Of a DNA stretch of 64,000 nt, positions 3,769 through 64,000 are shown piece by piece. The stretch spans positions 33,857-97,856 of the forward strand of contig CBDUQR010000002.1 in NCBI GenBank assembly GCA_965369655.1. Direction: 5' to 3'. The translations under genes and the position numbers were made by a program. The notes under the pieces were generated by a model, which saw nothing but the letters and a program-made list of their open reading frames with translations, did no database searches and had not been told where the DNA came from. Within the stretch, counting starts at the first letter, position 1. Every line of letters starts with the position of its first letter. Source of the stretch: an uncultured bacterium (GTDB taxonomy: Bacteria; Zixibacteria; MSB-5A5; JAABVY01; JAHJOQ01).

Positions 3769-3885
3769 TTCTATACAAGAGCGCGGTAATAGCTTCTACC
3801 CCTCCTATTTTATCACCGTCGTATCAAGGTGTACTGGTGCACCTGATTGCATCAGAACAACAAACAACTTCATAAGGAGGACGCC

Positions 3886-4722
3886 ATGAAGTGTTCGACC
3901 AGTATCATCCTGACAATCCTGCTGTCGATTTCGTTTATTGGCAGTACGGCATTGGCACAATTACCGGGGGACTGCAACGGATCTGGAGGAATCGACATCG
4001 ACGACGTGGTTTTAATCACATCCTACTTGTTGGAAGGGGACCAAGTTCCGACACCGGAATCAAGATCGAACTGTGACTGTGACAATAACCCTGGAATCTC
4101 GTTGGCTGATGCAGCGTTTATTATAGAAAGCATCTTCAATGGTCAGCAGTTGTTCCCGCCGACTGGCACAAAACTGACCAGGGGTTCCAGATCGACGATG
4201 TTCACAGGCGGACGGGCTACCGGGCTTCCGGGCATGGACAGGATAACTGTCCACATCGCAGTCGAGCCAAATGAAACCATCAACGGATTTCTGATACCGT
4301 TCTCTTACGCTTCACTGGCAGGCGACGCGGATATAAGCCTGACAAGCGTCGATTTTACGGGTTCCCTTCTTGAAGGATCGATAGTAGCGGTTATTGACGA
4401 TTCGAACAAGGTTCTCATGCTGTATGATGATCCACTTGCTCCGCCGAGTCTTACAGGGGGGACAATTGGACTTCTGGCCACTGTCTACTTCACCCAGAAT
4501 GCTCCCGGGAACGCTGTAGCGCTTCTCAAGACATCGACCGACAGGGTATCGCCGCTGCTCTTCCCGGAAGATTTTGTGAGTGATGATGGAGCACGGGTGC
4601 TTTATCCGGGCTTTGTCGAAAGGCCTATTGGCGATATTGACTGTTCATACTCCGTGGATATTGACGATGTTGTTGGAATGATAGGTTACATTTTTTCCGG
4701 CTTGCCGATCTGTTACTGGTAG
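3886..4722 (+). CDS. Secreted adaptor protein: N-terminal double dockerin-like repeat, cohesin-like beta-sandwich segment, C-terminal single dockerin-like repeat
   Basis: There is an AGGAGG RBS 7 nt upstream of ATG 3886 (the six-frame ORF start at 3847 lacks an RBS). A signal peptide is present (MKCSTSIILTILLSISFIGSTALA). Dockerin-like Ca-binding repeats are GDCNGSGGIDIDDVVLITSYLL, CDCDNNPGISLADAAFIIESIF and a third copy DIDCSYSVDIDDVVGMIGYIF. The central segment (RITVHIAVEPNETINGFLIPFSYASLAGDADISLTSVDFTGSLLEGSIVAVIDDSNKVLMLYDD) has the alternating hydrophobic pattern of cohesin modules. Confidence 0.6.
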   Translation: MKCSTSIILTILLSISFIGSTALAQLPGDCNGSGGIDIDDVVLITSYLLEGDQVPTPESRSNCDCDNNPGISLADAAFIIESIFNGQQLFPPTGTKLTRGSRSTMFTGGRATGLPGMDRITVHIAVEPNETINGFLIPFSYASLAGDADISLTSVDFTGSLLEGSIVAVIDDSNKVLMLYDDPLAPPSLTGGTIGLLATVYFTQNAPGNAVALLKTSTDRVSPLLFPEDFVSDDGARVLYPGFVERPIGDIDCSYSVDIDDVVGMIGYIFSGLPICYW

Positions 4723-4914
4723 CAAAATACCTGGGTCAGGACTGCCTGTCACTCGTCTCAGGACGAACAGGGGTCCTGACCTGTTACTCCTGGATTATCC
4801 TGGCAACGCTCGATGGTATCCATCCTGTTTCGCCATCCGATTTCCGGCATTGAAGAGCGTGTAAGTATTTTATGTAAGCGGCCATGATGTGTATTGATTT
4901 GAAGGAGGATACAC

Positions 4915-5170
4915 ATGGTCGACAAGCGCGACGATGCAGACAAGCTCATTGATGAGCTGATCGCAGGCTAAGTTCCCGAGGAGATAGTTGGCGAGGGTGG
5001 TCTACAGCAAGCCCTTACCAAACGGGTCTACGAACGGGCTTTTGAGGTGGAGATGACGCATCATCTGGGTTACCCGCCCAGAGCCCCCGAGGGCAGGAAC
5101 ACGGGCAACTCCCGTAATGGAAAGACCACCAAAACAGTCAAGACCGGGACCGAGTCGGTCGCAGATCCCG
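4915..5170 (+). pseudogene. IS256-family (mutator-type) transposase N-terminal remnant with an in-frame TAA
   Basis: There is a GGAGGA RBS before ATG 4915. The translation MVDKRDDADKLIDELIAG*VPEEIVGEGGLQQALTKRVYERAFEVEMTHHLGYPPRAPEGRNTGNSRNGKTTKTVKT matches the conserved IS256 transposase N-terminus (…LGY…GNSRNG…KTVKT). An in-frame stop lies at 4969-4971. Homology is lost after about 85 codons and no DDE domain follows. Confidence 0.6.
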
Positions 5171-5369
5171 TCATTGACCCCGATCTTCTCCCTCCGGGAT
5201 CCCGTGGGAGAGGGGATCCTGAGGGAGTTGCATTTCTGCCGAAACTACCTTTTGGGACAACCTCTCCACATGTGCCGATGGCGTTCAAGGTGGGGCAGAC
5301 TCTTCGAGGCACAGGACTCGCGAGGAGAGGCTGTCCCAAAAGTAGGTCGTGTTCCGAACCTGATGTAAT

Positions 5370-5600
5370 TCGGTCTCTGATCCCGATCCCGAGGGACTGG
5401 CAGGCTTCGCCTGCTGCGGAACGCCGACCTACTGGAGACCAGGACTTATGAGACAACCTCAGGACGTCTGCCGCCCACAGGAAACAGATCGCCACGTCGC
5501 TGTCGCTCCTCGCGATGACGTCGATTCCTGTTCACACCATGAGGGTTTTCTTAACAAGCCCGTCCTTTCCGGTTGCGATTGCTATATCCGATCAGTTGTC
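5370..5600. repeat. Noncoding repeat module, family C copy 1 (co-linear with 63385-63582)
   Basis: It shares ordered sub-motifs with the 63385-63582 copy: CGGTC..GATCCCGATCCYGAGGGAC, then AGATCRCCACGTCG..CGCTCCT..GATGACG, then TTTTCWAACAAGCCC. Confidence 0.45.
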
Positions 5601-5602
5601 TG

Positions 5603-6817
5603 TTAGCTTGAATATGGATCTTTGCCCTGGAGCTTGTCAGCGTAGAGCGGCGACATGGCAAGAAGCTTCTCGATAATCTCAGGCATGACCGAGATCATGT
5701 AGTCGACCTCTTCCTCACTGTTGTCCTTGCCCATCGAGACTGTGAGCGATCCCGAGCACAACTCCGCCGGAACGCCTACCGCCGTCAGCACATGCGATGT
5801 GACGAGATCTTCTTCGTCCTTACCCCGCAGGTTGGATGCGCACGCCGATCCTGATGCACACATGACGCCTTTCATGTTGAGCATCAGAAGCAGTGATTCG
5901 CCTTCGATGTACCTGATCCAGAAGCTGACATGTCCGGGCAGCCGGTACATCGGATGGCCGGTAAATTCGAGGAATTCGACATTGTTGTCGAGCCAGTCCC
6001 AGAGTTTTGTCTGGAGATTATCGAGGTGCTCGGTTCTTGACGGCGTTTCATCTATGGCGATTTCGCATGCTTTGCCCATTCCAACAATGCCGGGCAGATT
6101 CTCGGTGCCGGACCTGTAGCCCATTTCCTGCATTCCGCCGTCGAGCTGGCACTTGAGCAGGTTTCCGCTTTTCACATAGAGCGCGCCGACTCCCTTCGGC
6201 CCGTACATATTGTGCGACGAGAGCGTCATCGAGTCGACGTCGAGAAGGCGTACATCGATCGGGATGTTGCCGCCAGCCGCCGCAGCATCGGTGTGAAAAA
6301 ACACTCCCATCTCAGATGCAAACTTCCCAATGTCACCGATCTTCTGGACGGTCCCGATCTCGGAGCTTGCAGACTGTACGATCACCATCGCGGTATCGGC
6401 GCGAATCGCTTTGCGAACAGCAATCGGATCAACCCTGCCGTATTTGTCGCATTCGACGAGCGTGATTTCGTAGTCATCCTGCCTGAGTGCGTGGAACTGG
6501 CTGAGTACCGAGAAGTGTTCGATCGACGACGCGACAATATGCCTGCCCTTGTCCCGGTTGGCCTGCAGAAAGCCTTTGATCGCAAGGTTGTTCGATTCGG
6601 TCGCGCCGGAAGTGAAGATCACTTCATCCGATTCGGCGTTGATAAGACTTGCGACCTGCTCGCGAGCCTTGTCGAGCGCCTGCCCCGCCGCAACACCCTG
6701 CTTGTGGATGTGCGACGACGGGTTGCCGTAAAACTCTGAGAAATATGGCAGCATTGCCTCGACAACGCGCCTGTCGACCGGCGTCGTGGACTGGTGGTCG
6801 AAGTATATATTTCTCAT
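5603..6817 (-). CDS. nifS: Cysteine desulfurase (NifS/IscS class V aminotransferase)
   Basis: The 404-aa protein has the N-terminus MRNIYFDHQSTTPVDRRVVEAML and a PLP-lysine region (SSHNMYGPKGVGALY). A NifU scaffold gene follows on the same strand. Confidence 0.85.
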   Translation of the reverse strand: MRNIYFDHQSTTPVDRRVVEAMLPYFSEFYGNPSSHIHKQGVAAGQALDKAREQVASLINAESDEVIFTSGATESNNLAIKGFLQANRDKGRHIVASSIEHFSVLSQFHALRQDDYEITLVECDKYGRVDPIAVRKAIRADTAMVIVQSASSEIGTVQKIGDIGKFASEMGVFFHTDAAAAGGNIPIDVRLLDVDSMTLSSHNMYGPKGVGALYVKSGNLLKCQLDGGMQEMGYRSGTENLPGIVGMGKACEIAIDETPSRTEHLDNLQTKLWDWLDNNVEFLEFTGHPMYRLPGHVSFWIRYIEGESLLLMLNMKGVMCASGSACASNLRGKDEEDLVTSHVLTAVGVPAELCSGSLTVSMGKDNSEEEVDYMISVMPEIIEKLLAMSPLYADKLQGKDPYSS

Positions 6818-27331: not shown

Positions 27332-30300
27332 TTAGCAGCAGGCAGCCGGATCGGGCGCTGGTCCTCCACCGAAGATGTAGTTGATCAGATACACTACATC
27401 ATCGATGTCGATACCGCCCAAACCGTTGGCATCACCGCAACAGATATGATCCACAGGCTCTGGTCCGCCACCGAAGATATAGTTGATCAGATACACCACA
27501 TCATCGATGTCGACACCACCAGAACCGTTAGCATCGCCCGAAACGCAATCGGACACAGGCTCACAACCCGGACAGTCAATGTTAGCACAGATCCAGGTCT
27601 TACCCTTATCGATGAGATTTTGCAGATCTGAAAGGCCTGTAAGGCTCGAGGCCTTCACCTTGCAGTATACGACGCACTCCTCTGCTGCAAGTGTGAGATC
27701 CTGAGCGATGACGTACACCGAATTGAGGTCCTCTACTGAATCCGAGGCGAGAAATCCGGTATGTGTAGCCAACAGATTGCCTATTTCGGCAGGTACATAA
27801 CCGGAGTTATCATACACCCAGGTGTCGTTTTCGAGGACGATGGCACCAACGATATCACCACAGAAGGATGCGCCGCCATAGTAGTCCTCGTAAGGCGAAC
27901 TGCCGGCGGGACCATACTGGTAGACCATCTGTCTGTCTTCATCGACTCCGGACTGGTTGTCACTGCCGTCTTCGCCGTCCGGTATATCCCAGTCGATACC
28001 TTCACCGAGATGGATGGTGATAGCGGCATCGGTGTTGTTGCAGACTTCAACGCGCTCGATCAGTACACAGACATCCGGGTGCTTCGGCACGTACCACTCA
28101 ATCACACCGGTGATGGCTGAGTCTGGAGTAGCCCACTCGCCGTGAGCGTAGTCGTAGTTGACATCATCCACAAGTATCAGCGAGTCTAAAGCGACGAAGC
28201 TGACTTTGCTGTTGGAGCCGTCGAACATCGAGAAGAATGTCTGAGAGACGTCGTCAGCATATGTCACGATGATACCCTCGTCGTACATTGGCGCGAACTC
28301 TTCGAGGAACCAGAACATATTGCCGAGATCACTGCGTTGAGCAACACCGGCTCTCGGGACGTTCCAGACGCCGATAGACCAGCAAGCGGTCGACAGAATT
28401 TCGTATTCCGGCGGGAAGTACTTACAGGCGACCAGAAGGTTGACAGGAATGTCGACTTGATCGGAACCTTCAGTACTGGTCAGACTGACACTCACGTTAC
28501 CGATTTCGGCGGTTTCGTTGGCCACCGGGCCAACGTCCACGGTGATAGTGGCTACGGTATTGATACCAGCCGTCACCGTACCGGTACCGCCGGTGATGCT
28601 CATCCAGCTTTCAGTTTCGCTTACAATGTAGCCGATCTCGACGTTACCGGTGTTGACGATAACGACATCAAACGACGTCGTAGTCGGCATCGTGCAGTCG
28701 GTACCGCTCGTGGGAGAGATTATCACAGACTGGTCCTCAGGAGCGACCGAATAGCTGAAAATGGCTTCCGGAGTGAAGCATGGGTACGTGGCGTAGAGAA
28801 CCTCGTTCTCGGTTTCTTCTCCCTCATCGTGAACGAACGAGCCAGCGTCATGGTCGCTGACGTAGAAGAGGTGCAGTACACCAGACGAGTATTTGGCCAT
28901 CGATCCGAAGTTCTCGTTGTGGCATGCACCGGCCACACAGCCGTCGGAGTATGTATTGGTCAGGTTGACATAAGTGCCGAGCTTGACCGGGACGCCGCTG
29001 CCAGCGGTCGTCAGTGTGTCGAATTCGTCCAGGGTGCCGTCGGGACCCCATGTGATGCCGCCATCGCTCGATGCAGTCAGGCAGAATTCGCCGTTTGCAT
29101 AACCATTTGCGGAGCAATCACCGTTGTTGTCACCACGGGGCCAGGTTCCAAAACGAGTAAACGAAACGTACATGTTGCCGTCGCATTCGGAGATGTTGAT
29201 TCTGGAAATGGCGCCGAGACCACCACCGATACCGCCGCTGCAGAATCCAGTCGGGGAGGTAGCGTCGAGAACGCGCGATATGACGTTGCTGGACTGATCC
29301 CAGTGCCACATATTGCCGCGGAACAGCGGCTGGCAAGGATCATCTTCTCTGAAATCAGGAGTCAGCCAAATGATGTGAAGGTCCCCGTCAGAGTCGTAGA
29401 CGGCTGATATTTCCGATTGAGCCTTGTGCACAAAATTGATGGGGTCAAGTGTTCCTCCCTCGGTGTAGTCAGTGATGTTGACTTCCGAACCCCAGGTGGC
29501 GCCGCCGTCAGTCGATTCCATGTAGACTATGTCGTGTTGTACCCACTGGAAGTTATTGAGATCGCCGGCAGGGTTGCCATCGCCATCACAACTGTTTCTC
29601 GGGTCACCCTGCTCGTAGAAAGGTTTGCACCAGATGAGGGCCACGTCGTCCGATGTCGGAGCGGGATCAGAGCGAACAGTAGCATTGACCGTATGGGAAG
29701 CATCGATGTAGAGGCCGAGCGTGTCGGTAGAGGTACCGGGGCACTCAGCGAGATCACCGTCAATATACCGATAGTAGATGATCGATTGTATCGACTCGTC
29801 AGGAAGAGCCACCGGCGGCGACTCGGTTGAGACTATGTGCAGTATCTCTTCGCCGGTTGTCAGTTTCTGGAACTCACCTACCGGCCAAATGTATGCATCA
29901 CCTTCATTTGTGCCGGACATTTCTCCCTGGCAGTTCGGTGGACCCGGCGCCCAGCGACTCACGTCAGGAAGGGCTTGAGGAAAGTAGCCGGACGGTGGCA
30001 TCATATCTATGCCCGACCTTGTGGAATAGAGCGCCGAACCCGGGCCTGCATGCCAGAATCCGACCGCAACACCGGCGTCGGTGACGTCAATAGTGGTATA
30101 TCCGCCATTGTTGGCAGATGCTGAATTCCCGGTGTGGCCCCACACCCATGCGCTGGGAGTAGTGATTTTGCGAGAGTTGTAATATATTCTCCGAAAACCG
30201 CTATGATCAGTCGGATGGCCTCTCATCCAGAGAAAGTGAACATATTCCAAACCGCTACCCTGGAAGTTCGGCGTGTAAGCGATCTGCCTCCCCATCGTGC

Positions 30301-30541
30301 CGTTTTTTTGATATTCGTAGTAGGTCACGCCGACTGTGTCGCCGATTGGATTCTGACGCGAAGCAGCGCCTGAAGGGCCGAGCCTCGGGCCGCTCGGTGT
30401 GTCATCACCGGCGATGCTCTTGTAAGGTTTCATCTTGTAGGACTGGCTGGTGGCGTCATCGACATTGGCGATGGCCGAACCCGCAAAGATCAAGAGTGTG
30501 ATCATCGCGATAGCCAGTACAAAATTCTTGCTGGAAATCAT
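27332..30541 (-). CDS. Secreted BNR-repeat (sialidase-like beta-propeller) protein with a C-terminal tandem dockerin-type repeat; paralogue A, 1069 aa
   Basis: It has a signal peptide (MISSKNFVLAIAMITLLIFAGSAIA). BNR motifs are present (STDGGATWGS, SSDGGITWGPDG). The C-terminus is GDANGSGGVDIDDVVYLINYIFGGGPEP…GDANGLGGIDIDDVVYLINYIFGGGPAP, two canonical dockerin Ca-binding segments. It is about 80% identical to 30915-34154 over the C-terminal third. Confidence 0.8.
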   Translation of the reverse strand: MISSKNFVLAIAMITLLIFAGSAIANVDDATSQSYKMKPYKSIAGDDTPSGPRLGPSGAASRQNPIGDTVGVTYYEYQKNGTMGRQIAYTPNFQGSGLEYVHFLWMRGHPTDHSGFRRIYYNSRKITTPSAWVWGHTGNSASANNGGYTTIDVTDAGVAVGFWHAGPGSALYSTRSGIDMMPPSGYFPQALPDVSRWAPGPPNCQGEMSGTNEGDAYIWPVGEFQKLTTGEEILHIVSTESPPVALPDESIQSIIYYRYIDGDLAECPGTSTDTLGLYIDASHTVNATVRSDPAPTSDDVALIWCKPFYEQGDPRNSCDGDGNPAGDLNNFQWVQHDIVYMESTDGGATWGSEVNITDYTEGGTLDPINFVHKAQSEISAVYDSDGDLHIIWLTPDFREDDPCQPLFRGNMWHWDQSSNVISRVLDATSPTGFCSGGIGGGLGAISRINISECDGNMYVSFTRFGTWPRGDNNGDCSANGYANGEFCLTASSDGGITWGPDGTLDEFDTLTTAGSGVPVKLGTYVNLTNTYSDGCVAGACHNENFGSMAKYSSGVLHLFYVSDHDAGSFVHDEGEETENEVLYATYPCFTPEAIFSYSVAPEDQSVIISPTSGTDCTMPTTTSFDVVIVNTGNVEIGYIVSETESWMSITGGTGTVTAGINTVATITVDVGPVANETAEIGNVSVSLTSTEGSDQVDIPVNLLVACKYFPPEYEILSTACWSIGVWNVPRAGVAQRSDLGNMFWFLEEFAPMYDEGIIVTYADDVSQTFFSMFDGSNSKVSFVALDSLILVDDVNYDYAHGEWATPDSAITGVIEWYVPKHPDVCVLIERVEVCNNTDAAITIHLGEGIDWDIPDGEDGSDNQSGVDEDRQMVYQYGPAGSSPYEDYYGGASFCGDIVGAIVLENDTWVYDNSGYVPAEIGNLLATHTGFLASDSVEDLNSVYVIAQDLTLAAEECVVYCKVKASSLTGLSDLQNLIDKGKTWICANIDCPGCEPVSDCVSGDANGSGGVDIDDVVYLINYIFGGGPEPVDHICCGDANGLGGIDIDDVVYLINYIFGGGPAPDPAACC

Positions 30542-30914: not shown

Positions 30915-33900
30915 CTAACAGATATCAACGGGCGGAGGTCCTCCACCGAAGATGTAGTTAATCAGGTAGACTACGTCATCGATGTCGACGCCACCAGAAC
31001 CATTTGCGTCGCCGCAGCAATTATCCTGCACAGGCGGAGGTCCGCCACCGAAGATGTAGTTAATCAGATAGACTACGTCATCGATGTCGACACCGCCACT
31101 GCCGTTTGCGTCACCAGGCACGCAGTCGGGGCCACTGCTAACACAGCCGGGACAGTCGATTTCCGGTGTGTCGGCGATGAATTCCTTGCCCTTATCGATG
31201 AGATTCTGCAGATCCAAAAGGCTTGTAAGGCTCGAGGCCTTCACCTTGCAGAACGTGGTGCAGGCCTGTGCATCGAGGGTAAGATTCTGAGCGATGACGT
31301 ACACCGAATTGAGGTCCTCGGCTGGGTCCGGATTTGGGGCGACAAATCCGGTATGTGTAGCCAGCAGATTACCTATGTCGGCAGGTATGTAACCGGAGTT
31401 CGGATACACCCAGACATCGTTTTCGAGGACGATGGTACCGACGATGTCAACGCAGAAGGATGCACCACCGTGGTAGTCCTCGTAAGGCGAACTGCCAGTG
31501 GGACCATGCTGGTAGACCATCTGTCTGTCGGTATCGACTCCGCAATTGTTGTCAGATCCATCATCTCCATCCGGGAAGTCCCAGTCGATACCTTCACCGA
31601 GATGGATGGTGATAGCAGCATCAGAGTTGTTGCAGACTACGACGCGCTCGATCAGCACACAGTACACCGGGTGCTTCGGCGTGTACCAGTCGATAGTGCC
31701 GGTGATGACAGAGTCCGGAGTGGCCCACAGGCCATTGGCCTGTTCATAGGTGGAATGGTCTGTAACAGTCAATGGTCCCATGGCTATGAAGCTGGCATCA
31801 CTGTCAGAGCCGTCGAACATCGAGAAGAATGTCTGAGAGACATCCTCAGCGTATGTCAAGATGAGACCCTCGTCATACATCGGAGCAACATCCTCGACAA
31901 ACCACCACATGTTGCCCTCGTCATTTCTCTGAGCGAGTCCGGCTCTCGGAACGTTCCAGACGCCGACTGACCAGCAGTGTGTCGAGATCAGGGCATATTC
32001 GGGCACATAGTACAGGCACTCGACATGCGCCGTGACATCAACCACAATTCCCGATGCACTGCCAGCGGAGCTGGTCAGGTCGATTGTTACCGTCCCAGGG
32101 TATTCGCCCTCGGCCCCGATCGGACCAACTGTCATGACGACATCAGCCGTTGGATTGATGCCGGCAGTGATTGTACCACTACCGGAAGCAGGATTCAACC
32201 ATGACTGGTCGGATGTGAACGTATAGTTGATCGGAACGTTTCCTGCGTTCGTGATCGTAATAGTGAAGTCGTCGGTGTATTCGATAGTACAGTCGGGTAC
32301 GCCATTCGGTGCGATCGGCACGAACGCGCTTGATGGATCAACTCTGTAATCGAACGTACCTTCCGGCTCGAAGCACGGATATGTCATGTACATATATGCG
32401 TTATTTGTGTATTCACCTTCCGCATCCACAACGACGGCTGCGCCGGGATGGTTGTCGTCAATGTACGCGATATGTACGACGTCGGTCGAGTACTTGGCCA
32501 TGCTTGACCAGTGTTCGCTGTGGCAATCGCCAGCCACGCAATCGTCAGTGCGAGTGTTGGTCACGTTGACTGCCGTGCCAGTTTTCACTGCGGTACCTGT
32601 TCCTCCGGTCGTGAGGTAGTCGTATGGAGGAGCGGCAGCGTCCGGACCCCACGTGATACCACCGTCGCTGGAACCTGTCAGGAAGATGTCACCGTTGAGA
32701 AACATCAGATCCGAGTAGTCTCCACCAACACTGTCATGAATAACCATGGCAGGGTCCATTGTTGTGTCAGGATGAGCGCCGAAACGGGTGAACGAAACAT
32801 AGAGCCTCTCGTCACACTCGGAGATATTCGGCTTGCTGGTCATTATGTTCCACACACCGGTGTTCGAGAAAGTACCACCGGGTCCTCTGAAGAGGAAGGG
32901 CATCGTGGCGTCGTAGACCGGGGTGATTTCCTGGTTGAAATCATCCCAATGCCACATCATGGTGGTATAGTAGCTTCCTTCACACGCACCGGCAGCGGGC
33001 CATACCGGAGTATTCCAGACAATGTGCAGTGTGCCGAGATGGTCATACAGCGCAGTCACATCTGTATACGCCATGTACTTGATCTCACTGATCGCGAGAG
33101 TGCCGCCGTCTGAGTAATTGGTGATGTTGGTCGGTGTCGCATCCCAGGTCACGCCGCCATCATTGGATTCGAAGTAAGCGACGTCGTGCTGCCACTGTGT
33201 GTACTCGCAATCATTATTGGGATGGTTAGGATCAGGATACATATCCTTTAGATACACGATGGCGACCTTATCCGAACCCGGGTCGGATCGGACTACCGGG
33301 GTGATGTTCTGGTCCTCGGTCATCCAGCGACCGAGAGTATCCGTAGATGTACCCGTGCACTCGTCCGTGGTATCGTTCACAATACGGTAATAGATGAAAG
33401 ACTGTATCGTGGCTGCCGGGGGTATAGGATCCCCACCCGGGTTCTCGGTGGATATGACGTGATAGACGTCATTTCCGTCGACATTGTCATACTCTATGAC
33501 CGGCCAGAGGTATTCGCTTTCCAACTCATAACCATCCTCACCTTCGCCCTCGCAGTTTGGCGGAGCCGGTTGCTGAAGCTTGGAGAACGGGGTGTTCGGC
33601 GGCATTAGGTCCTTGCCAGCATATGTGAAGTAAAAACCGGCGAGGCCCTCATGCCAGGAGGCGATTGCGGCGCCTTCGCTATTGACGTCGATTGTCGTAT
33701 ATCCGCCATTAGCGCCGGAGAATGATGTGCCGGCGTTATCATCGCCGTGCCTGTGAATCCATGCCTGCGGGGCACTCAACTTTCTTGCGTTGTAACGGAT
33801 ATACCTTGTCGCGCCAGGGGCGTTCCTCCACATCCAGACAAAGTGAATATATGGATGCCCATTTAGATCTGGGGTGTAAGCAATCTGTCTGCCCATTGAG

Positions 33901-34154
33901 CCGTTGTGCTGGAAGTCGTAGTATGTCAAACCTGCGGTATCACCGGGAGGCTGGGGGACAGGGCCGAAGCGTGACGGGCCGAAACGCGGCACGTCAGCGC
34001 CGATAAGTTCATCGGATCCGCCAGTTACAGCCTGAGGGGTCAATTGGCTCTCTGGACGGACGTTACTGATTTCACTTTCGATTGCCATCGCAGGTGCGGC
34101 AAGCATAAGCAGGATCGCCACCGCAAGGCAAAAGACTTTTGAATTTTCTGTCAT
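30915..34154 (-). CDS. Secreted BNR-repeat beta-propeller protein with a C-terminal tandem dockerin-type repeat; paralogue B, 1079 aa
   Basis: The start is set at MTENSKVF, with a GGAGAGG RBS. It has a signal peptide and BNR motifs (SNDGGVTWDA, SSDGGITWGPDA). The C-terminus is GDANGSGGVDIDDVVYLINYIFGGGPPP repeated twice. Confidence 0.8.
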   Translation of the reverse strand: MTENSKVFCLAVAILLMLAAPAMAIESEISNVRPESQLTPQAVTGGSDELIGADVPRFGPSRFGPVPQPPGDTAGLTYYDFQHNGSMGRQIAYTPDLNGHPYIHFVWMWRNAPGATRYIRYNARKLSAPQAWIHRHGDDNAGTSFSGANGGYTTIDVNSEGAAIASWHEGLAGFYFTYAGKDLMPPNTPFSKLQQPAPPNCEGEGEDGYELESEYLWPVIEYDNVDGNDVYHVISTENPGGDPIPPAATIQSFIYYRIVNDTTDECTGTSTDTLGRWMTEDQNITPVVRSDPGSDKVAIVYLKDMYPDPNHPNNDCEYTQWQHDVAYFESNDGGVTWDATPTNITNYSDGGTLAISEIKYMAYTDVTALYDHLGTLHIVWNTPVWPAAGACEGSYYTTMMWHWDDFNQEITPVYDATMPFLFRGPGGTFSNTGVWNIMTSKPNISECDERLYVSFTRFGAHPDTTMDPAMVIHDSVGGDYSDLMFLNGDIFLTGSSDGGITWGPDAAAPPYDYLTTGGTGTAVKTGTAVNVTNTRTDDCVAGDCHSEHWSSMAKYSTDVVHIAYIDDNHPGAAVVVDAEGEYTNNAYMYMTYPCFEPEGTFDYRVDPSSAFVPIAPNGVPDCTIEYTDDFTITITNAGNVPINYTFTSDQSWLNPASGSGTITAGINPTADVVMTVGPIGAEGEYPGTVTIDLTSSAGSASGIVVDVTAHVECLYYVPEYALISTHCWSVGVWNVPRAGLAQRNDEGNMWWFVEDVAPMYDEGLILTYAEDVSQTFFSMFDGSDSDASFIAMGPLTVTDHSTYEQANGLWATPDSVITGTIDWYTPKHPVYCVLIERVVVCNNSDAAITIHLGEGIDWDFPDGDDGSDNNCGVDTDRQMVYQHGPTGSSPYEDYHGGASFCVDIVGTIVLENDVWVYPNSGYIPADIGNLLATHTGFVAPNPDPAEDLNSVYVIAQNLTLDAQACTTFCKVKASSLTSLLDLQNLIDKGKEFIADTPEIDCPGCVSSGPDCVPGDANGSGGVDIDDVVYLINYIFGGGPPPVQDNCCGDANGSGGVDIDDVVYLINYIFGGGPPPVDIC

Positions 34155-34527
34155 TGTTCTACCTCTCCTCAAGGTTTCATCACTGGTGTTGCGCGTGATG
34201 TTGGTTCAAAGTAAGAGAAAGCCTCTAACATAAGTTGCTGTTTCAAATTCGTTAGAAGCTAAGTCGAAGTACCGGCATGCGTCCTCCTATTATGTTTTGT
34301 GTTCCGGGTCAATTGTAGTATTCAACAATACTATTTAAAGAAGAAGCTCTGCTCATGTTTAGATTAATAGACACGGCCATGAAAGTCAAGGCAAAAAACA
34401 CAATTGTTTGCCCAAAAAAAACGTGACGGAAGCTTTCGATGGCGTTTTGGGACTGACTTCCAGGACCGATATCTGGCCGGATGAACCGGCGCAATAATTG
34501 CGAAAGTACGCCGTGCAGAAGATATTG

Positions 34528-35592: not shown

Positions 35593-37695
<2,103 letters not shown>

Positions 37696-38045
37696 AAACC
37701 CACCCGACGCTTTCGCTTTGGGTGGGCTACCGGTCTGATTGACTTGAGCGAGAAGCTGACTCTGTCGCTCCCGCGGAGGCGGGAGCCTATTTAACGATAA
37801 CGCATTCAATAGATTCCCGCCTGCGCGGGAATGACGCTATTTTCTTTCGCAAACATGATTACCTGCCTTTCGAATCTTTTGGGACAACCTCGGGAGGTCT
37901 ACCAGCCACAAAATGAGATTGCCACGCTCCCTTCGGTCGCTCACGATGACCGCATCGAGGGAAATTCCACAGAAAAGCAGAAGGGAGCGGCATGTGCCGA
38001 CTCCCTTGCCAAGCCATCTTGTGATTTTGACTGGTCTGTGCCGAT

Positions 38046-45865: not shown

Positions 45866-45925
45866 AGAACCCACCCGAAGCTGCGCTTTGGACAGGAAGG
45901 GGTTTCGATCTACTCAACTATTAGT
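45866..45925. repeat. Composite short repeat (family B): AACCCACCCGAMGCT and GGACAGGWAARGGTTTCGAYCTACTCAACT
   Basis: The first motif also occurs at 37699-37713, the second at 50149-50182. The second motif overlaps the stop codon of the 45910-46686 gene. Confidence 0.4.
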
Positions 45926-46864: not shown

Positions 46865-46936
46865 CTTGTAGGTCAAGCGCGCTCGCGCTTGACGATTAGA
46901 AAAGATGTCAAGCGGTCAGGCCGCTTGACCTACAAG
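46865..46936. repeat. Nested palindromic element (family A): a 15-bp perfect terminal inverted repeat CTTGTAGGTCAAGCG / CGCTTGACCTACAAG enclosing two inner hairpins
   Basis: It reads CTTGTAGGTCAAGCGCGCTCGCGCTTGAC…GTCAAGCGGTCAGGCCGCTTGACCTACAAG. Related elements occur at 49426-49645. Confidence 0.55.
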
Positions 46937-49422: not shown

Positions 49423-49660
49423 ACAGTAGGTCAAGCTCACTTGGAGCTTGACTCTTCACACGTCACGCCCCTCTTCGTCAAACTCAAGACAGAGCAAGTG
49501 GGCATGTTTGTGGGCGGCAGACGTCCTCGTCTGCCCCATCCAGCGTTGACATCGGCAGATGTGGACATCTGCCCCGCACAAGTAGGTCAAGCTCACTTGG
49601 AGCTTGACACTTCACACGTCATGCCCCGAGTGGGCATGACCTACTACTCTGCGACCTAAT
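49423..49660. repeat. Highly structured intergenic region: two ~46-bp direct repeats of a family A element plus several perfect hairpins
   Basis: The direct repeats are 49426-49471 and 49581-49626 (GTAGGTCAAGCTCACTTGGAGCTTGAC(T/A)CTTCACACGTCA(C/T)GCCCC). The second is completed by GAGTGGGCATGACCTAC. Perfect hairpins are GGCAGACGTCCTCGTCTGCC and GGCAGATGTGGACATCTGCC. Confidence 0.5.
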
Positions 49661-50002: not shown

Positions 50003-50298
50003 AGAAGCAGGTTACCTGTTTCACGTCCTGAGAACAAGTTTGAAAGTTGAGGTCAAATCTCGGAGTCCGCGAAGCGAACGGAGAGACTTGACAATCCTTT
50101 TTCCTTTTCGCGCTTCGCGCAAGATGTCGAAACCACCCTTCGCAGGCTCAGGACAGGTAAAGGTTTCGACCTACTCAACTGTCAAGACGTTAAATAGTTA
50201 TGAGAACTGACATGGGTTGTTCGGGACGGCGAAACAGCTTGACGTTATGTTTTGAGGCTCGTATATTTCTCAACTTAATGGAAGTGGTGTTAGCTAGT

Positions 50299-63267: not shown

Positions 63268-63300
63268 AGTGCGGCCGTTGCGGGCCGCGCTTTGCTATTT
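63268..63300 (+). terminator. Possible Rho-independent terminator
   Basis: The GCGGCC-GTTGC-GGGCCGC hairpin is followed by GCTTTGCTATTT. Confidence 0.4.
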
Positions 63301-63384
63301 GGTCGGACATTCCGACATTAAGGGCTTGTTGAGAAAGGCAGTTGAGATGGAATCCCGAGCGGCCAATGGATTCCGCCGTCATTG

Positions 63385-63582
63385 CGAGCAACCGTCGGTC
63401 GCCGATCCCGATCCTGAGGGACGAGGGGATCCCCGAGGGACAGGGAGCGTGGCGATCTCATGTCAAACAGCGTACTACAAGAATCGAGATCACCACGTCG
63501 TTACCGCTCCTTGTGATGACGACTGCGAGGACCTGCGCCCGAAATGGATTTTTCAACAAGCCCATGAACGTGAGTTTGCGAG
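63385..63582. repeat. Noncoding repeat module, family C copy 3, ending at the flippase ATG
   Basis: It contains CGGTCGCCGATCCCGATCCTGAGGGAC, GAGATCACCACGTCGTTACCGCTCCTTGTGATGACGAC and TTTTTCAACAAGCCC in the same order as 5370-5600. Confidence 0.45.
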
Positions 63583-64000
63583 ATGTTTGTTAAGGACAGC
63601 ATAAACACTTTCATTCTTCGCTGTGGCGTTATGCCCCTTGCATTTGTGATCTCGATCGTCGTCTCGAATCTCGGGCAGGAGATCAAGGGACAGATCGCCA
63701 TCGTACTCTTTGTCGTTGGCCTGCTGAAACTGATTATGACGATGGGTTTTGAGGCAGCGGTCATCTACTATCTGAGAAGGAGTAAGTACGATTTCGATAC
63801 ATTGACGAGGAATCTTAACCTTGCCTATCCGGTCCTGTTCGTCGTCTGGTCTGCGATTCTGATTCCCTCGTTTTACTTTCTGCATGTGCAGGGCCTTTTT
63901 GGTGAGATCGGCTTTATCCTTGTAGGTGCGGCCTTTGTCATAGCTCCTTTCGACATCCTTCTCGACATCCAGATTGGCATTCTGTCAGGGACGGGTGAAA
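63583..64000 (+). CDS. Polysaccharide flippase-like membrane protein (Wzx/MOP superfamily), 3'-truncated by the window end
   Basis: The frame is open from ATG 63583 to the end of the window. It is absent from the ORF track because no stop is reached. The product has consecutive TM helices (MPLAFVISIVVSNLG…IAIVLFVVGLLKLIMTMGFEAAVIYYL). Confidence 0.5.
   Translation, partial: MFVKDSINTFILRCGVMPLAFVISIVVSNLGQEIKGQIAIVLFVVGLLKLIMTMGFEAAVIYYLRRSKYDFDTLTRNLNLAYPVLFVVWSAILIPSFYFLHVQGLFGEIGFILVGAAFVIAPFDILLDIQIGILSGTGE

Follow-up and report, generated by a model that had tools for sequence, protein, structure and literature searches.

Blocks of non-coding sequence recur at three places in the 64,000-nucleotide stretch of DNA analysed here (the window), and at two of them they lie just upstream of the start codons of unrelated genes, ligA and a flippase gene. 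This raises the question of whether they form a promoter cassette, leader or riboregulator, as a preliminary description of the window had considered, or are repeat DNA of another kind. We conclude, with a probability of roughly 0.8, that the feature is selfish non-coding repeat DNA, comprising one decayed copy and two fragments of a mobile element built on a doublet of hairpins.

The ordered blocks reported as common to 5370–5600 and 63385–63582 are real. In the 5-kb and 63-kb copies the first block, CGGTC..GATCCCGATCCYGAGGGAC, is identical at 24 of 27 positions, the central core at 30 of 38 and the last block, TTTYTYAACAAGCCC, at 13 of 15. Global alignment of the two intervals gave 135 identities in 180 aligned columns and a score of 45.5, which is about 11 standard deviations above that of shuffled sequences (9.0 ± 3.2), and the similarity is therefore far beyond chance. 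The description of these copies as about 80% identical with similar spacing holds for the distance from the core to the last block (26 nt at 5 kb and 27 nt at 63 kb), but identity is about 75% in the aligned columns and the spacers between blocks cannot be aligned, the similarity being confined to the blocks. A 36-nt form of the core (GAGATCRCCACGTCG..CGCTCCTYGYGATGACG) is present on the plus strand at 5485–5520 and 63486–63521 and, with a 1-nt deletion, on the minus strand at 37656–37690; two core matches were found in none of 100 shuffled windows.

The 63-kb copy defines the unit. Its last block has an inverted partner at 63322–63336, so that the interval 63385–63582 truncates the element, and we therefore take the unit to be 63322–63563, bounded by the inverted pair 63322–63336/63549–63563 (Table 1). 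The architecture of this interval agrees with that of 14 intact metagenomic copies described below, and a doublet HMM matches 63444–63520 with E = 1.7e-11. Relative to the intact-element template, the spacer, hairpin B and the right repeat are intact, hairpin B having its tagged, hairpin-forming strand on the minus strand (CGTCATCAC...GTGATCTC). The two halves of hairpin A are detected separately by nhmmer, at 63377–63391 (E = 0.034) and 63445–63459 (E = 0.26), and the loop between them contains two GATCCyGAGGGAC words (63404–63422 and 63427–63441) that correspond to the first shared block. The flanks, ATTAA and ATGAA, show no clean target duplication and are not palindromic, and the copy folds weakly better than shuffled sequences (z = −1.8).

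Table 1. Coordinates of the element, its fragments and the associated REP units in the window.
Feature	Position	Strand	Remarks
63-kb copy, whole element	63322–63563	+	Read as a 242-nt expanded, decayed copy of a 152-nt palindromic element (left terminal repeat, hairpin A, spacer, hairpin B, right terminal repeat)
Left terminal inverted repeat	63322–63339	+	GGGCTTGTTGAGAAAGGC
Hairpin A	63378–63459	+	CGTCATTGCGAGC ... GAGCGTGGCGATCTC; apical loop grown to ~57 nt
A–B spacer	63460–63485	+	26 nt; ~26–35 nt in other genomes
Hairpin B (core of the preliminary description)	63486–63521	+	GAGATCACCACGTCGTTACCGCTCCTTGTGATGACG; HMM E = 4.9e-8
Right terminal inverted repeat	63549–63563	+	TTTTTCAACAAGCCC; 19 nt before the flippase ATG (63583)
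5-kb copy, displaced fragment	5170–5228	+	GTCATTGACCCCGATC...GGGATCCCGTGGGAGAGGGGATCCTGAGGGAG; resembles the 5' half of hairpin A plus loop words; assigned by reading the sequence, no HMM match
5-kb copy, second fragment of the expanded hairpin-A loop	5371–5397	+	CGGTCTCTGATCCCGATCCCGAGGGAC; 24/27 identical to 63396–63422
5-kb copy, hairpin B (second copy)	5485–5520	+	HMM E = 2.1e-12
5-kb copy, right terminal inverted repeat	5547–5561	+	TTTCTTAACAAGCCC; 26 nt past hairpin B, 41 nt before the aminotransferase stop (5603)
ligA cluster, hairpin B (third copy)	37656–37690	-	E = 5.1e-12; GAGATC...GATGACG on the minus strand toward ligA
ligA cluster, nested dimer of classical CGTC-1-type REPs	37763–37836		Tags outward
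ligA cluster, CGTC-1-type unit	37763–37789	+	TGTC-GCTCCCGC-GGAG-GCGGGAGC-CTA
ligA cluster, CGTC-1-type unit	37810–37836	-	CGTC-ATTCCCGC-GCAG-GCGGGAAT-CTA
ligA cluster, degenerate hairpin A (fourth hairpin)	37915–37950	-	A-arm HMM E = 0.0037

Assemblies made independently from the source samples are broken at 63384, 63404, 63424 and 37806, as is typical of multicopy repeats. The window organism has one full copy plus fragments in the 64 kb, and the assembly breaks suggest further copies indirectly. A strict composite pattern of the three blocks had no match in the metagenome collection, and the GATCCyGAGGGAC words therefore appear private to the window lineage. When the loci of other genomes were searched, the words TTTTGGGACAACCTC and GGGATCCYGAGGGA were absent, and matches resembling the terminal inverted repeat were unlinked to hairpins.

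The 5-kb copy lacks the left terminal repeat, contains in addition an unrelated 95-nt palindrome, and adjoins the stop codon, rather than the start, of a minus-strand class-V aminotransferase gene (5603–6817). Its position beside an IS256 remnant, noted previously, is confirmed by a Transposase_mut match (E = 2.9e-6); the displaced fragment directly follows this IS256-family remnant (∼4915–5165). The 5.4–5.6 kb copy is a right-half remnant accompanied by scrambled pieces of the element.

At the third site the preliminary description had placed both the central and the distal block. The core hairpin is there (nhmmer E = 5e-12), with its tagged strand on the plus strand (CGTCATCACGAGGAGCGGAGCGACGTGGTGATCTC); the distal block is not, and the terminal inverted repeat is absent. 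This hairpin and the degenerate hairpin A make up an A...B pair, in which nested repeats have widened the spacer to 224 nt. One stretch of the nested dimer (37813–37832) fits exactly the consensus ATTCCC-N8-GGGAAT of the Neisseria dRS3 repeats, which, with the NIMEs, fall in the CGTC superfamily (PMC1797815), and the whole ligA–exbB spacer is a mosaic of nested units. We read the 37.6–37.95 kb cluster as an A...B pair that other REP units have invaded. A −35/−10 match for ligA, TTGACA-17-TACATT (37640–37612), lies between the third hairpin and the ligA ATG at 37605. The repeats had been said to run directly into the ligA and flippase start codons; in fact the third hairpin stops 50 nt upstream of the ligA ATG, and 19 nt separate the end of the 63-kb repeat (63563) from the flippase ATG.

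Comparison with related loci indicates how the 63-kb copy may have come to lie beside the flippase gene. Two more distant flippase orthologues, at 62% and 57% identity, share with the window an operon-like arrangement of genes, GFO/Idh/MocA, hexapeptide transferase, DegT, flippase and GT4. No hairpins are present in the DegT–flippase spacers of the orthologous loci, which measure 143 and 134 nt; the corresponding window spacer, of 374 nt, equals 132 nt plus the 242-nt element, and the native ACGTG..ATG stretch, in the 15–19 nt before the flippase ATG, is retained. The flippase start at 63583 is confirmed by a public contig encoding a 439-aa Polysacc_synt_3 protein. In a relative of 91% identity (L133, GCA_030623025.1) the element is at the same site, on a contig that starts inside hairpin A, and the same hairpin-A arm is split by a different loop insert. 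We believe that 63322–63563 is an old copy, which a recent ancestor acquired between its DegT aminotransferase and flippase genes, and that the loop of hairpin A was probably swollen later by nested palindromic words. Integration linked to a tRNA was considered separately and rejected, as the window holds no tRNA.

We then asked how widely the hairpins occur, by scanning species-representative genomes with a 31-position core pattern, AGATCRCCACGTCGN{3,6}CGCTCCTYGYGATGAC; matches are selected by the pattern, and the distribution is a lower bound, not a census. The pattern was found at no fewer than 113 loci (that is, at least 113) in about 12 phyla, including cultured isolates (Halomonas garicola, Pelotomaculum propionicicum) and closed long-read chromosomes. 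The taxa listed are Chloroflexota, Bacillota, Desulfobacterota, alpha-, beta- and gamma-Pseudomonadota, Bacteroidota, Rhodothermota, Chlorobiota, Acidobacteriota, Zixibacteria, Patescibacteria, Spirochaetota and Armatimonadota. Several genomes hold at least 10 core matches, some of them in tandem clusters, such as that of H. garicola with five units about 125 nt apart, and the hairpins are present in uncultured phage contigs as well. Closed genomes in which the core is abundant include OY760687.1, OZ220731.1 and those of H. garicola and P. propionicicum. A partner hairpin A (GTCATTGCGAGCGAAGCGYGGCAATCTC; GTCATTGCGAGCGAAGCGTGGCAATCTC) lies inverted within 80 nt upstream in 69 of the 133 matches listed, usually about 30 nt away.

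The hairpins are conserved as structures. A variable stem position covaries, so that ATCGC..GCGAT stands against ATCAC..GTGAT, with mixed forms in 3 of the 134 matches listed. Across 66 aligned doublets, pairing within the two local hairpins reaches 97.7%, with compensatory changes at five pairs, a result that none of 500 shuffles reached. The compensatory changes favour two separate hairpins over a single long one. That single A:B hairpin was rejected as the selected structure, as it shows zero compensatory change and its pairing is broken by variants of B that keep their own stem.

On its tagged strand each hairpin reads (C/T)GTC, a 5-bp stem started by A-T, an internal loop, a GCGNAGC or longer inner stem-loop, the returning stem and CTC, and hairpins A and B stand tail to tail with their tags outward. 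In hairpin A the GTC is invariant (66/66) and is preceded by T (31) or C (24), pair 5–40 is A-U in 62 of 66 and pair 6–39 is U-A in 64 of 66; the two corresponding pairs of hairpin B hold in all 66. The base after the GATGAC of hairpin B is A in 80 (TGTC) and G in 49 (CGTC) of the 133 matches listed, and the corresponding sequence in the window copies is CGTCAT (63378; 63521, minus; 5520, minus; 37656). The 3-nt tail is conserved as CTC in 57 of 66, not as CCA. GCGNAGC is an extraordinarily stable DNA mini-hairpin (PMC13037366) that also caps RAYT-linked enterobacterial REPs (PMC2817692), and this cap points to structure at the level of DNA.

Evidence for mobility comes from intact relatives. 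Metagenomes scanned for the core and last block at the window spacing yielded 14 loci, of which 12 came from a single sample; in one metagenome (Ga0180009), 12 contigs carry at least 13 elements. The intact element is 150–165 nt long (modal length 152) and is ordered GGGCTTGTTGARAAACCC / ∼8 nt / hairpin A / 29-nt spacer / hairpin B / ∼20 nt / TTTTTCAACAAGCCC, with terminal inverted repeats of 15–18 nt, GGGCTTGTTGARAAA on the left and TTTTTCAACAAGCCC on the right, beyond which the flanks of different copies are unrelated. Exact direct repeats flank 9 of the 14 copies, eight of 4 bp (CTTG, GGAA, TCCA, CATT, CAAG, TGAA, GAAA, CTTG) and one of 6 bp (ATATTA), and at least four of the copies without an exact repeat are mismatched at one position. 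In five of the 14 copies the flanks are palindromic, with complementarity at 7 or more of 8 positions, compared with 2.9% of random sites; the empty sites, when reconstructed, are short hairpins. The same contigs contain uninterrupted target hairpins, one of which, TGTC-ATACCGAT-GCAA-ATCGGTAT-CCA, is a textbook CGTC-1 REP, and the other CCCCACAGC-TCT-GCTGTGGGG. A CGTC-1 hairpin has the sequence TGTCATACCGATGCAAATCGGTATCCA. Folded as DNA, an intact copy with its flanks reaches −46.9 kcal/mol (z = −6.25). From the flanking repeats, the palindromic empty sites and the uninterrupted hairpins it follows that REP tetraloops are the insertion sites of the element and that the loop is duplicated on insertion. 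The intact relatives are thus multicopy elements with sharp boundaries and 4-bp target duplications, lodged in tetraloops that belong to other REP hairpins. The evidence on target duplication and on hairpin loops derives from these relatives, found in other metagenomes, and not from the window organism. In the window lineage, a doublet of two REP-type DNA hairpins enclosed by 15–18-nt terminal inverted repeats makes up the 152-nt miniature element, presumably moved by a transposase that acts in trans and makes 4-bp staggered cuts.

The same doublet also occurs in other shells. In Chloroflexota it is enclosed by CTCAYGCGTACCCAGTTT .. AAACTGGGTACGCGTGAG in units of 136–138 nt, with 9–10-bp direct duplications in 15 of 26 copies, and further shells are found in Syntrophomonas and Pelotomaculum; looking for copies of the Chloroflexota outer palindrome without the doublet gave no match. 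The inner doublet is therefore the near-identical part across phyla, and the outer repeats and the length of the duplication differ. This combination could arise by repeated capture of the doublet by palindromic elements, as an element that bears the doublet itself targets hairpin loops, or could reflect some enzyme that reads the hairpins. Tentatively, and at rather long odds, the A/B doublet may be the functionally constrained core of a non-autonomous family that spans at least 12 phyla in different shells, the 4-bp REP-tetraloop shell and the Chloroflexota 9–10-bp shell among them.

The partner genes of such a family were sought without success. The window, 0.9 Mb of loci and the plasmid collection yielded no transposase or autonomous parent with these terminal repeats, and a BLAST search of the plasmids with the intact element gave nothing meaningful. 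Clustering of neighbouring ORFs for a linked transposase returned ordinary metabolic families only, with no recurrent protein family.

Among known repeats, the hairpins most need to be compared with the CGTC-tagged REPs (Di Nocera et al. 2013, BMC Genomics 14:522, PMC3733652). These have CGTC or TGTC tags, stems started by A-T and a 3-nt tail, occur mostly as inverted dimers in five phyla with no linked transposase and no link to RAYT genes, and form a superfamily that includes Neisseria dRS3 and Rickettsia RPE-4/-6 (PMC3733652). The A/B hairpins share the tag, the A-T start, the length of the tail, the inverted dimers with outward tags and spacers of 20–100 nt, the presence in several phyla with unusually similar sequences, the lack of a linked transposase and the spurious short ORFs. 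CGTC-tagged REPs are sometimes enclosed in longer palindromes (PMC3733652), and the outer palindrome around the dimers of H. neapolitanus, GGGaaGCTT-GAAAaACC.., resembles the window terminal repeat. The four CGTC families have uninterrupted 8–9-bp stems, loops of 4–5 nt and a CCA tail, whereas in the A/B hairpins a 5-bp outer stem leads through an internal loop to an inner stem capped by GCGNAGC, and the tail is CTC; in the window the stem and loop of the four families occur only in units 37763–37789 and 37810–37836. We therefore file the A/B hairpins in the CGTC superfamily as a variant, on the strength of tag, A-T start and dimers, with stem and loop at odds and a CTC tail. We found no mention in PMC3733652 of target duplication or insertion into REP loops, both of which are present in the A/B element.

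As a whole, the element looks like an undescribed variant within the CGTC-tagged REP superfamily, packaged as a MITE. Like MITEs it is 150–240 nt long, non-coding and intergenic and has 15–18-nt terminal inverted repeats, and an intact copy folds back strongly on itself; target duplications and multiple copies are seen in its intact relatives. It differs from them in that its best-conserved part is the internal doublet and not the termini, in that the same core occurs in varied shells, and in that no parent IS was found. IS1397 and ISKpn1 insert in the REP loop with a 3–4-bp duplication, as the 152-nt element inserts inside REP hairpins; those are autonomous IS3-family elements ending in TG..CA, whereas the 152-nt element is non-autonomous and itself carries REP hairpins. 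In a literature whose coverage is incomplete, we came across no non-autonomous element described as carrying REP hairpins and also targeting them, and searches with the repeat sequence and the encoded pseudo-peptides returned primers and unrelated papers only.

Could the repeats nonetheless control the genes beside them? A mobile promoter or 5'-UTR cassette, or a conserved leader or riboregulator acting on the downstream gene, gains some appeal because two of the three window copies precede a start codon by 19–50 nt and both run from A to B toward the gene, and because read-through from the upstream DegT gene would transcribe the element. Three of the 14 intact relatives also lie 30–50 nt upstream of an ORF, yet this shows that such closeness is common by chance; all 14 are intergenic, in mixed contexts. 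The window copies share no sigma-70-like promoter site, the sole match on the ligA side lying outside the repeat, and the 5-kb copy is at the 3' end of a gene. Rfam has no hit at the gathering score, and relaxed matches (window E ≤ 5, intact copy E ≤ 10) are at the level of chance (E 0.9–5.9). Among the matches listed in other genomes, the core occurs in tandem (45), convergent (27) and divergent (19) spacers, and in tandem spacers on the same (15) or opposite (30) strand, and its neighbours are unrelated housekeeping genes. The orthologous flippase loci do without the element, and the covariation supports two separate hairpins with a DNA-type cap. A regulatory function is thus very unlikely, and the leader or promoter reading as a conserved function is largely refuted already: of the idea of a MITE carrying expression signals, the MITE remains, with its terminal repeats and target duplications in relatives, and the signals are not supported. 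We found no evidence that the position of the window copies beside gene starts is regulatory, and we attribute their proximity to the ligA and flippase starts to the insertion of the element into intergenic DNA. The repeats may still influence expression of ligA or the flippase gene, for instance by adding structure to a 5' UTR or to polycistronic mRNA, but such an effect would be an incidental one; a co-opted regulatory role is conceivable.

Two other readings concern how the hairpins spread. A REPIN-type doublet might be moved by a Y1/HUH RAYT-like transposase acting on single-stranded hairpins, with the outer repeats as passive target or passenger; this would fit the conservation of the inner hairpins, rather than the outer repeats, across phyla, the likeness of the hairpin build (unpaired tag, bulged stem, GCGNAGC cap) to RAYT-linked REPs, and the inverted doublets that are a REPIN hallmark, tagged imperfect hairpins, inverted doublets and tandem clusters being features of the REP/BIME/REPIN–RAYT systems of Proteobacteria too. 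GTAG-type REP doublets are present in the window as well. The doublet tag, however, is (C/T)GTC and not GTAG, and CGTC-type REPs are reported without a RAYT link (PMC3733652). A RAYT probe found nothing below E = 0.7 by tblastn in the window and 0.9 Mb of loci, a search in which one gene per genome is easily missed. The duplications, of 4 bp or, in the Chloroflexota shell, 9–10 bp, flank the whole composite bounded by terminal repeats, and Y1 transposition is not known to make target duplications. We regard this reading as unlikely. A role as recombination or integration sites of the dRS3/NIME kind, in which a site-specific recombinase, incoming IS or phage targets the repeats and builds mosaic intergenic clusters, is distinctly unlikely as a separate account. 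The exact dRS3-type unit in the mosaic ligA–exbB spacer, the IS256-family remnant at 5 kb and the hairpins in phage contigs all speak for it, and REP hairpins serve as insertion targets here and for IS elements of five families (PMC1525189; Tobes and Pareja 2006). NIMEs (dRS3 plus RS blocks) likewise form intergenic mosaics of short hairpin repeats that bracket lineage-specific blocks; those are long, regular, Neisseria-specific arrays, in contrast to the small, nested window clusters, whose A/B hairpins do not fit the dRS3 consensus. A target role leaves the multicopy A/B doublet with its sharp boundaries and duplications unexplained, no recombinase gene is linked to the hairpins, and the reading is compatible with the mobile-element explanation and no alternative to it. 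Chance similarity or an assembly artefact, suggested by the short blocks, by three or four sites in 64 kb and by the metagenomic source, is hardly credible given the shuffling results above and the recurrence of the same sequences in independent assemblies (L001, L132, L133), isolate genomes and closed long-read chromosomes.

We therefore return to selfish repeat DNA as the preferred explanation, in which a false regulatory lead is removed: the ligA and flippase ‘leaders’ are repeat debris, and the overlapping short ORFs at 63269–63604 and 37556–37738 are probably spurious. Repeats of this kind fragment metagenome assemblies, four independent contigs ending inside them. The feature is ordinary in kind, REP/MITE debris, and the family to which it belongs is unusually broad and has a clear insertion signature, with near-identical hairpins across phyla, a series of filled and empty REP tetraloops, and one core in shells with different ends. 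If the doublet is indeed a constrained core, a widespread enzyme or host process would read GCGNAGC-capped, GTC-tagged hairpins, the ‘orphan’ CGTC REP superfamily would gain a mobilization mechanism, and nested Russian-doll clusters would be explained. These data supply concrete sequences and target sites with which to seek a means of spread for CGTC-type REPs.

The A/B doublet, a pair of inverted REP-type DNA hairpins (A and B) separated by ∼30 nt, occurs in tandem clusters in two other genomes: five units spaced ∼125 nt apart in Halomonas garicola (locus L013, 2585-3205), and three spaced ∼135 nt apart in a Thioalkalivibrio MAG (locus L027). Neither cluster is a single insertion; both are BIME-like arrays. 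Uncultured ‘Bacteriophage sp.’ contigs of human faecal origin also carry hairpin A or B, with identities of 91-100% (matches H2-H10; one is listed in the table). Carriage of the hairpin repeat on putative phage DNA is a possible route for its spread between phyla.

The 95-nt palindromic unit within the 5-kb repeat cluster is bounded by 19-bp inverted repeats (CTTTTGGGACArCCTCTCC) that are complementary at 18 of 19 positions, and a solo terminus lies in the ligA-exbB spacer; no match to the unit was found when it was sought in the loci of other genomes. The IS256-family remnant directly abutting the 5-kb cluster retains ∼80 codons and is interrupted by a stop codon. REP-associated elements have been reported to include the IS256 family (PMC1525189).

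A second repeat family in the window, unrelated to the A/B hairpins, consists of GTAG-tagged REP hairpins (GTAGGTCAAGC...GCTTGAC). Two of them are inverted doublets with the tags facing outward, the classical REPIN layout, of which a RAYT transposase is the usual associate. DNA segments of the adjacent paralogous genes are 80-86% identical at an offset of 3.58-3.59 kb, and the dockerin-like GATGTCGA.. repeats of both also match the dockerin protein gene. The 35-nt direct repeat, whose copies are 83% identical and 4.26 kb apart, may delimit an insertion; there are no tRNA genes anywhere in the 64-kb window.

Features of the window, with one match from the phage collection
Feature	Position	Strand	Remark
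Palindromic unit, 95 nt	5250-5344		inside 5-kb repeat cluster
Solo terminus of palindromic unit	37877-37897		ligA-exbB spacer
IS256-family (Transposase_mut) transposase remnant	4897-5181		N-terminal
ORF across repeat cluster	63269-63604	+	
ORF across repeat cluster	37556-37738	+	
ORF across repeat cluster	5047-5451	+	
GTAG-tagged REP hairpins	46868-46933, 49425-49451, 49581-49645		
GTAG-REP doublet partner	49618-49645		GTAG-GTCATGCCC-ACTC-GGGGCATGAC
Large paralogous genes	27332-30541, 30915-34172	minus	1069 and 1085 aa
Dockerin protein gene	3847-4722		
35-nt direct repeat	45885-45919, 50146-50180		
Phage-collection match	MT835548.1 21420-21447		

The three ORFs that run across repeat clusters (60-134 codons) are probably all spurious; a Pfam scan of those beginning at 63269 and 5047 gave no match. 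Protein databases are probably contaminated by pseudo-peptides of this kind that repeats encode (..LLAMT, ..EIATSL..).
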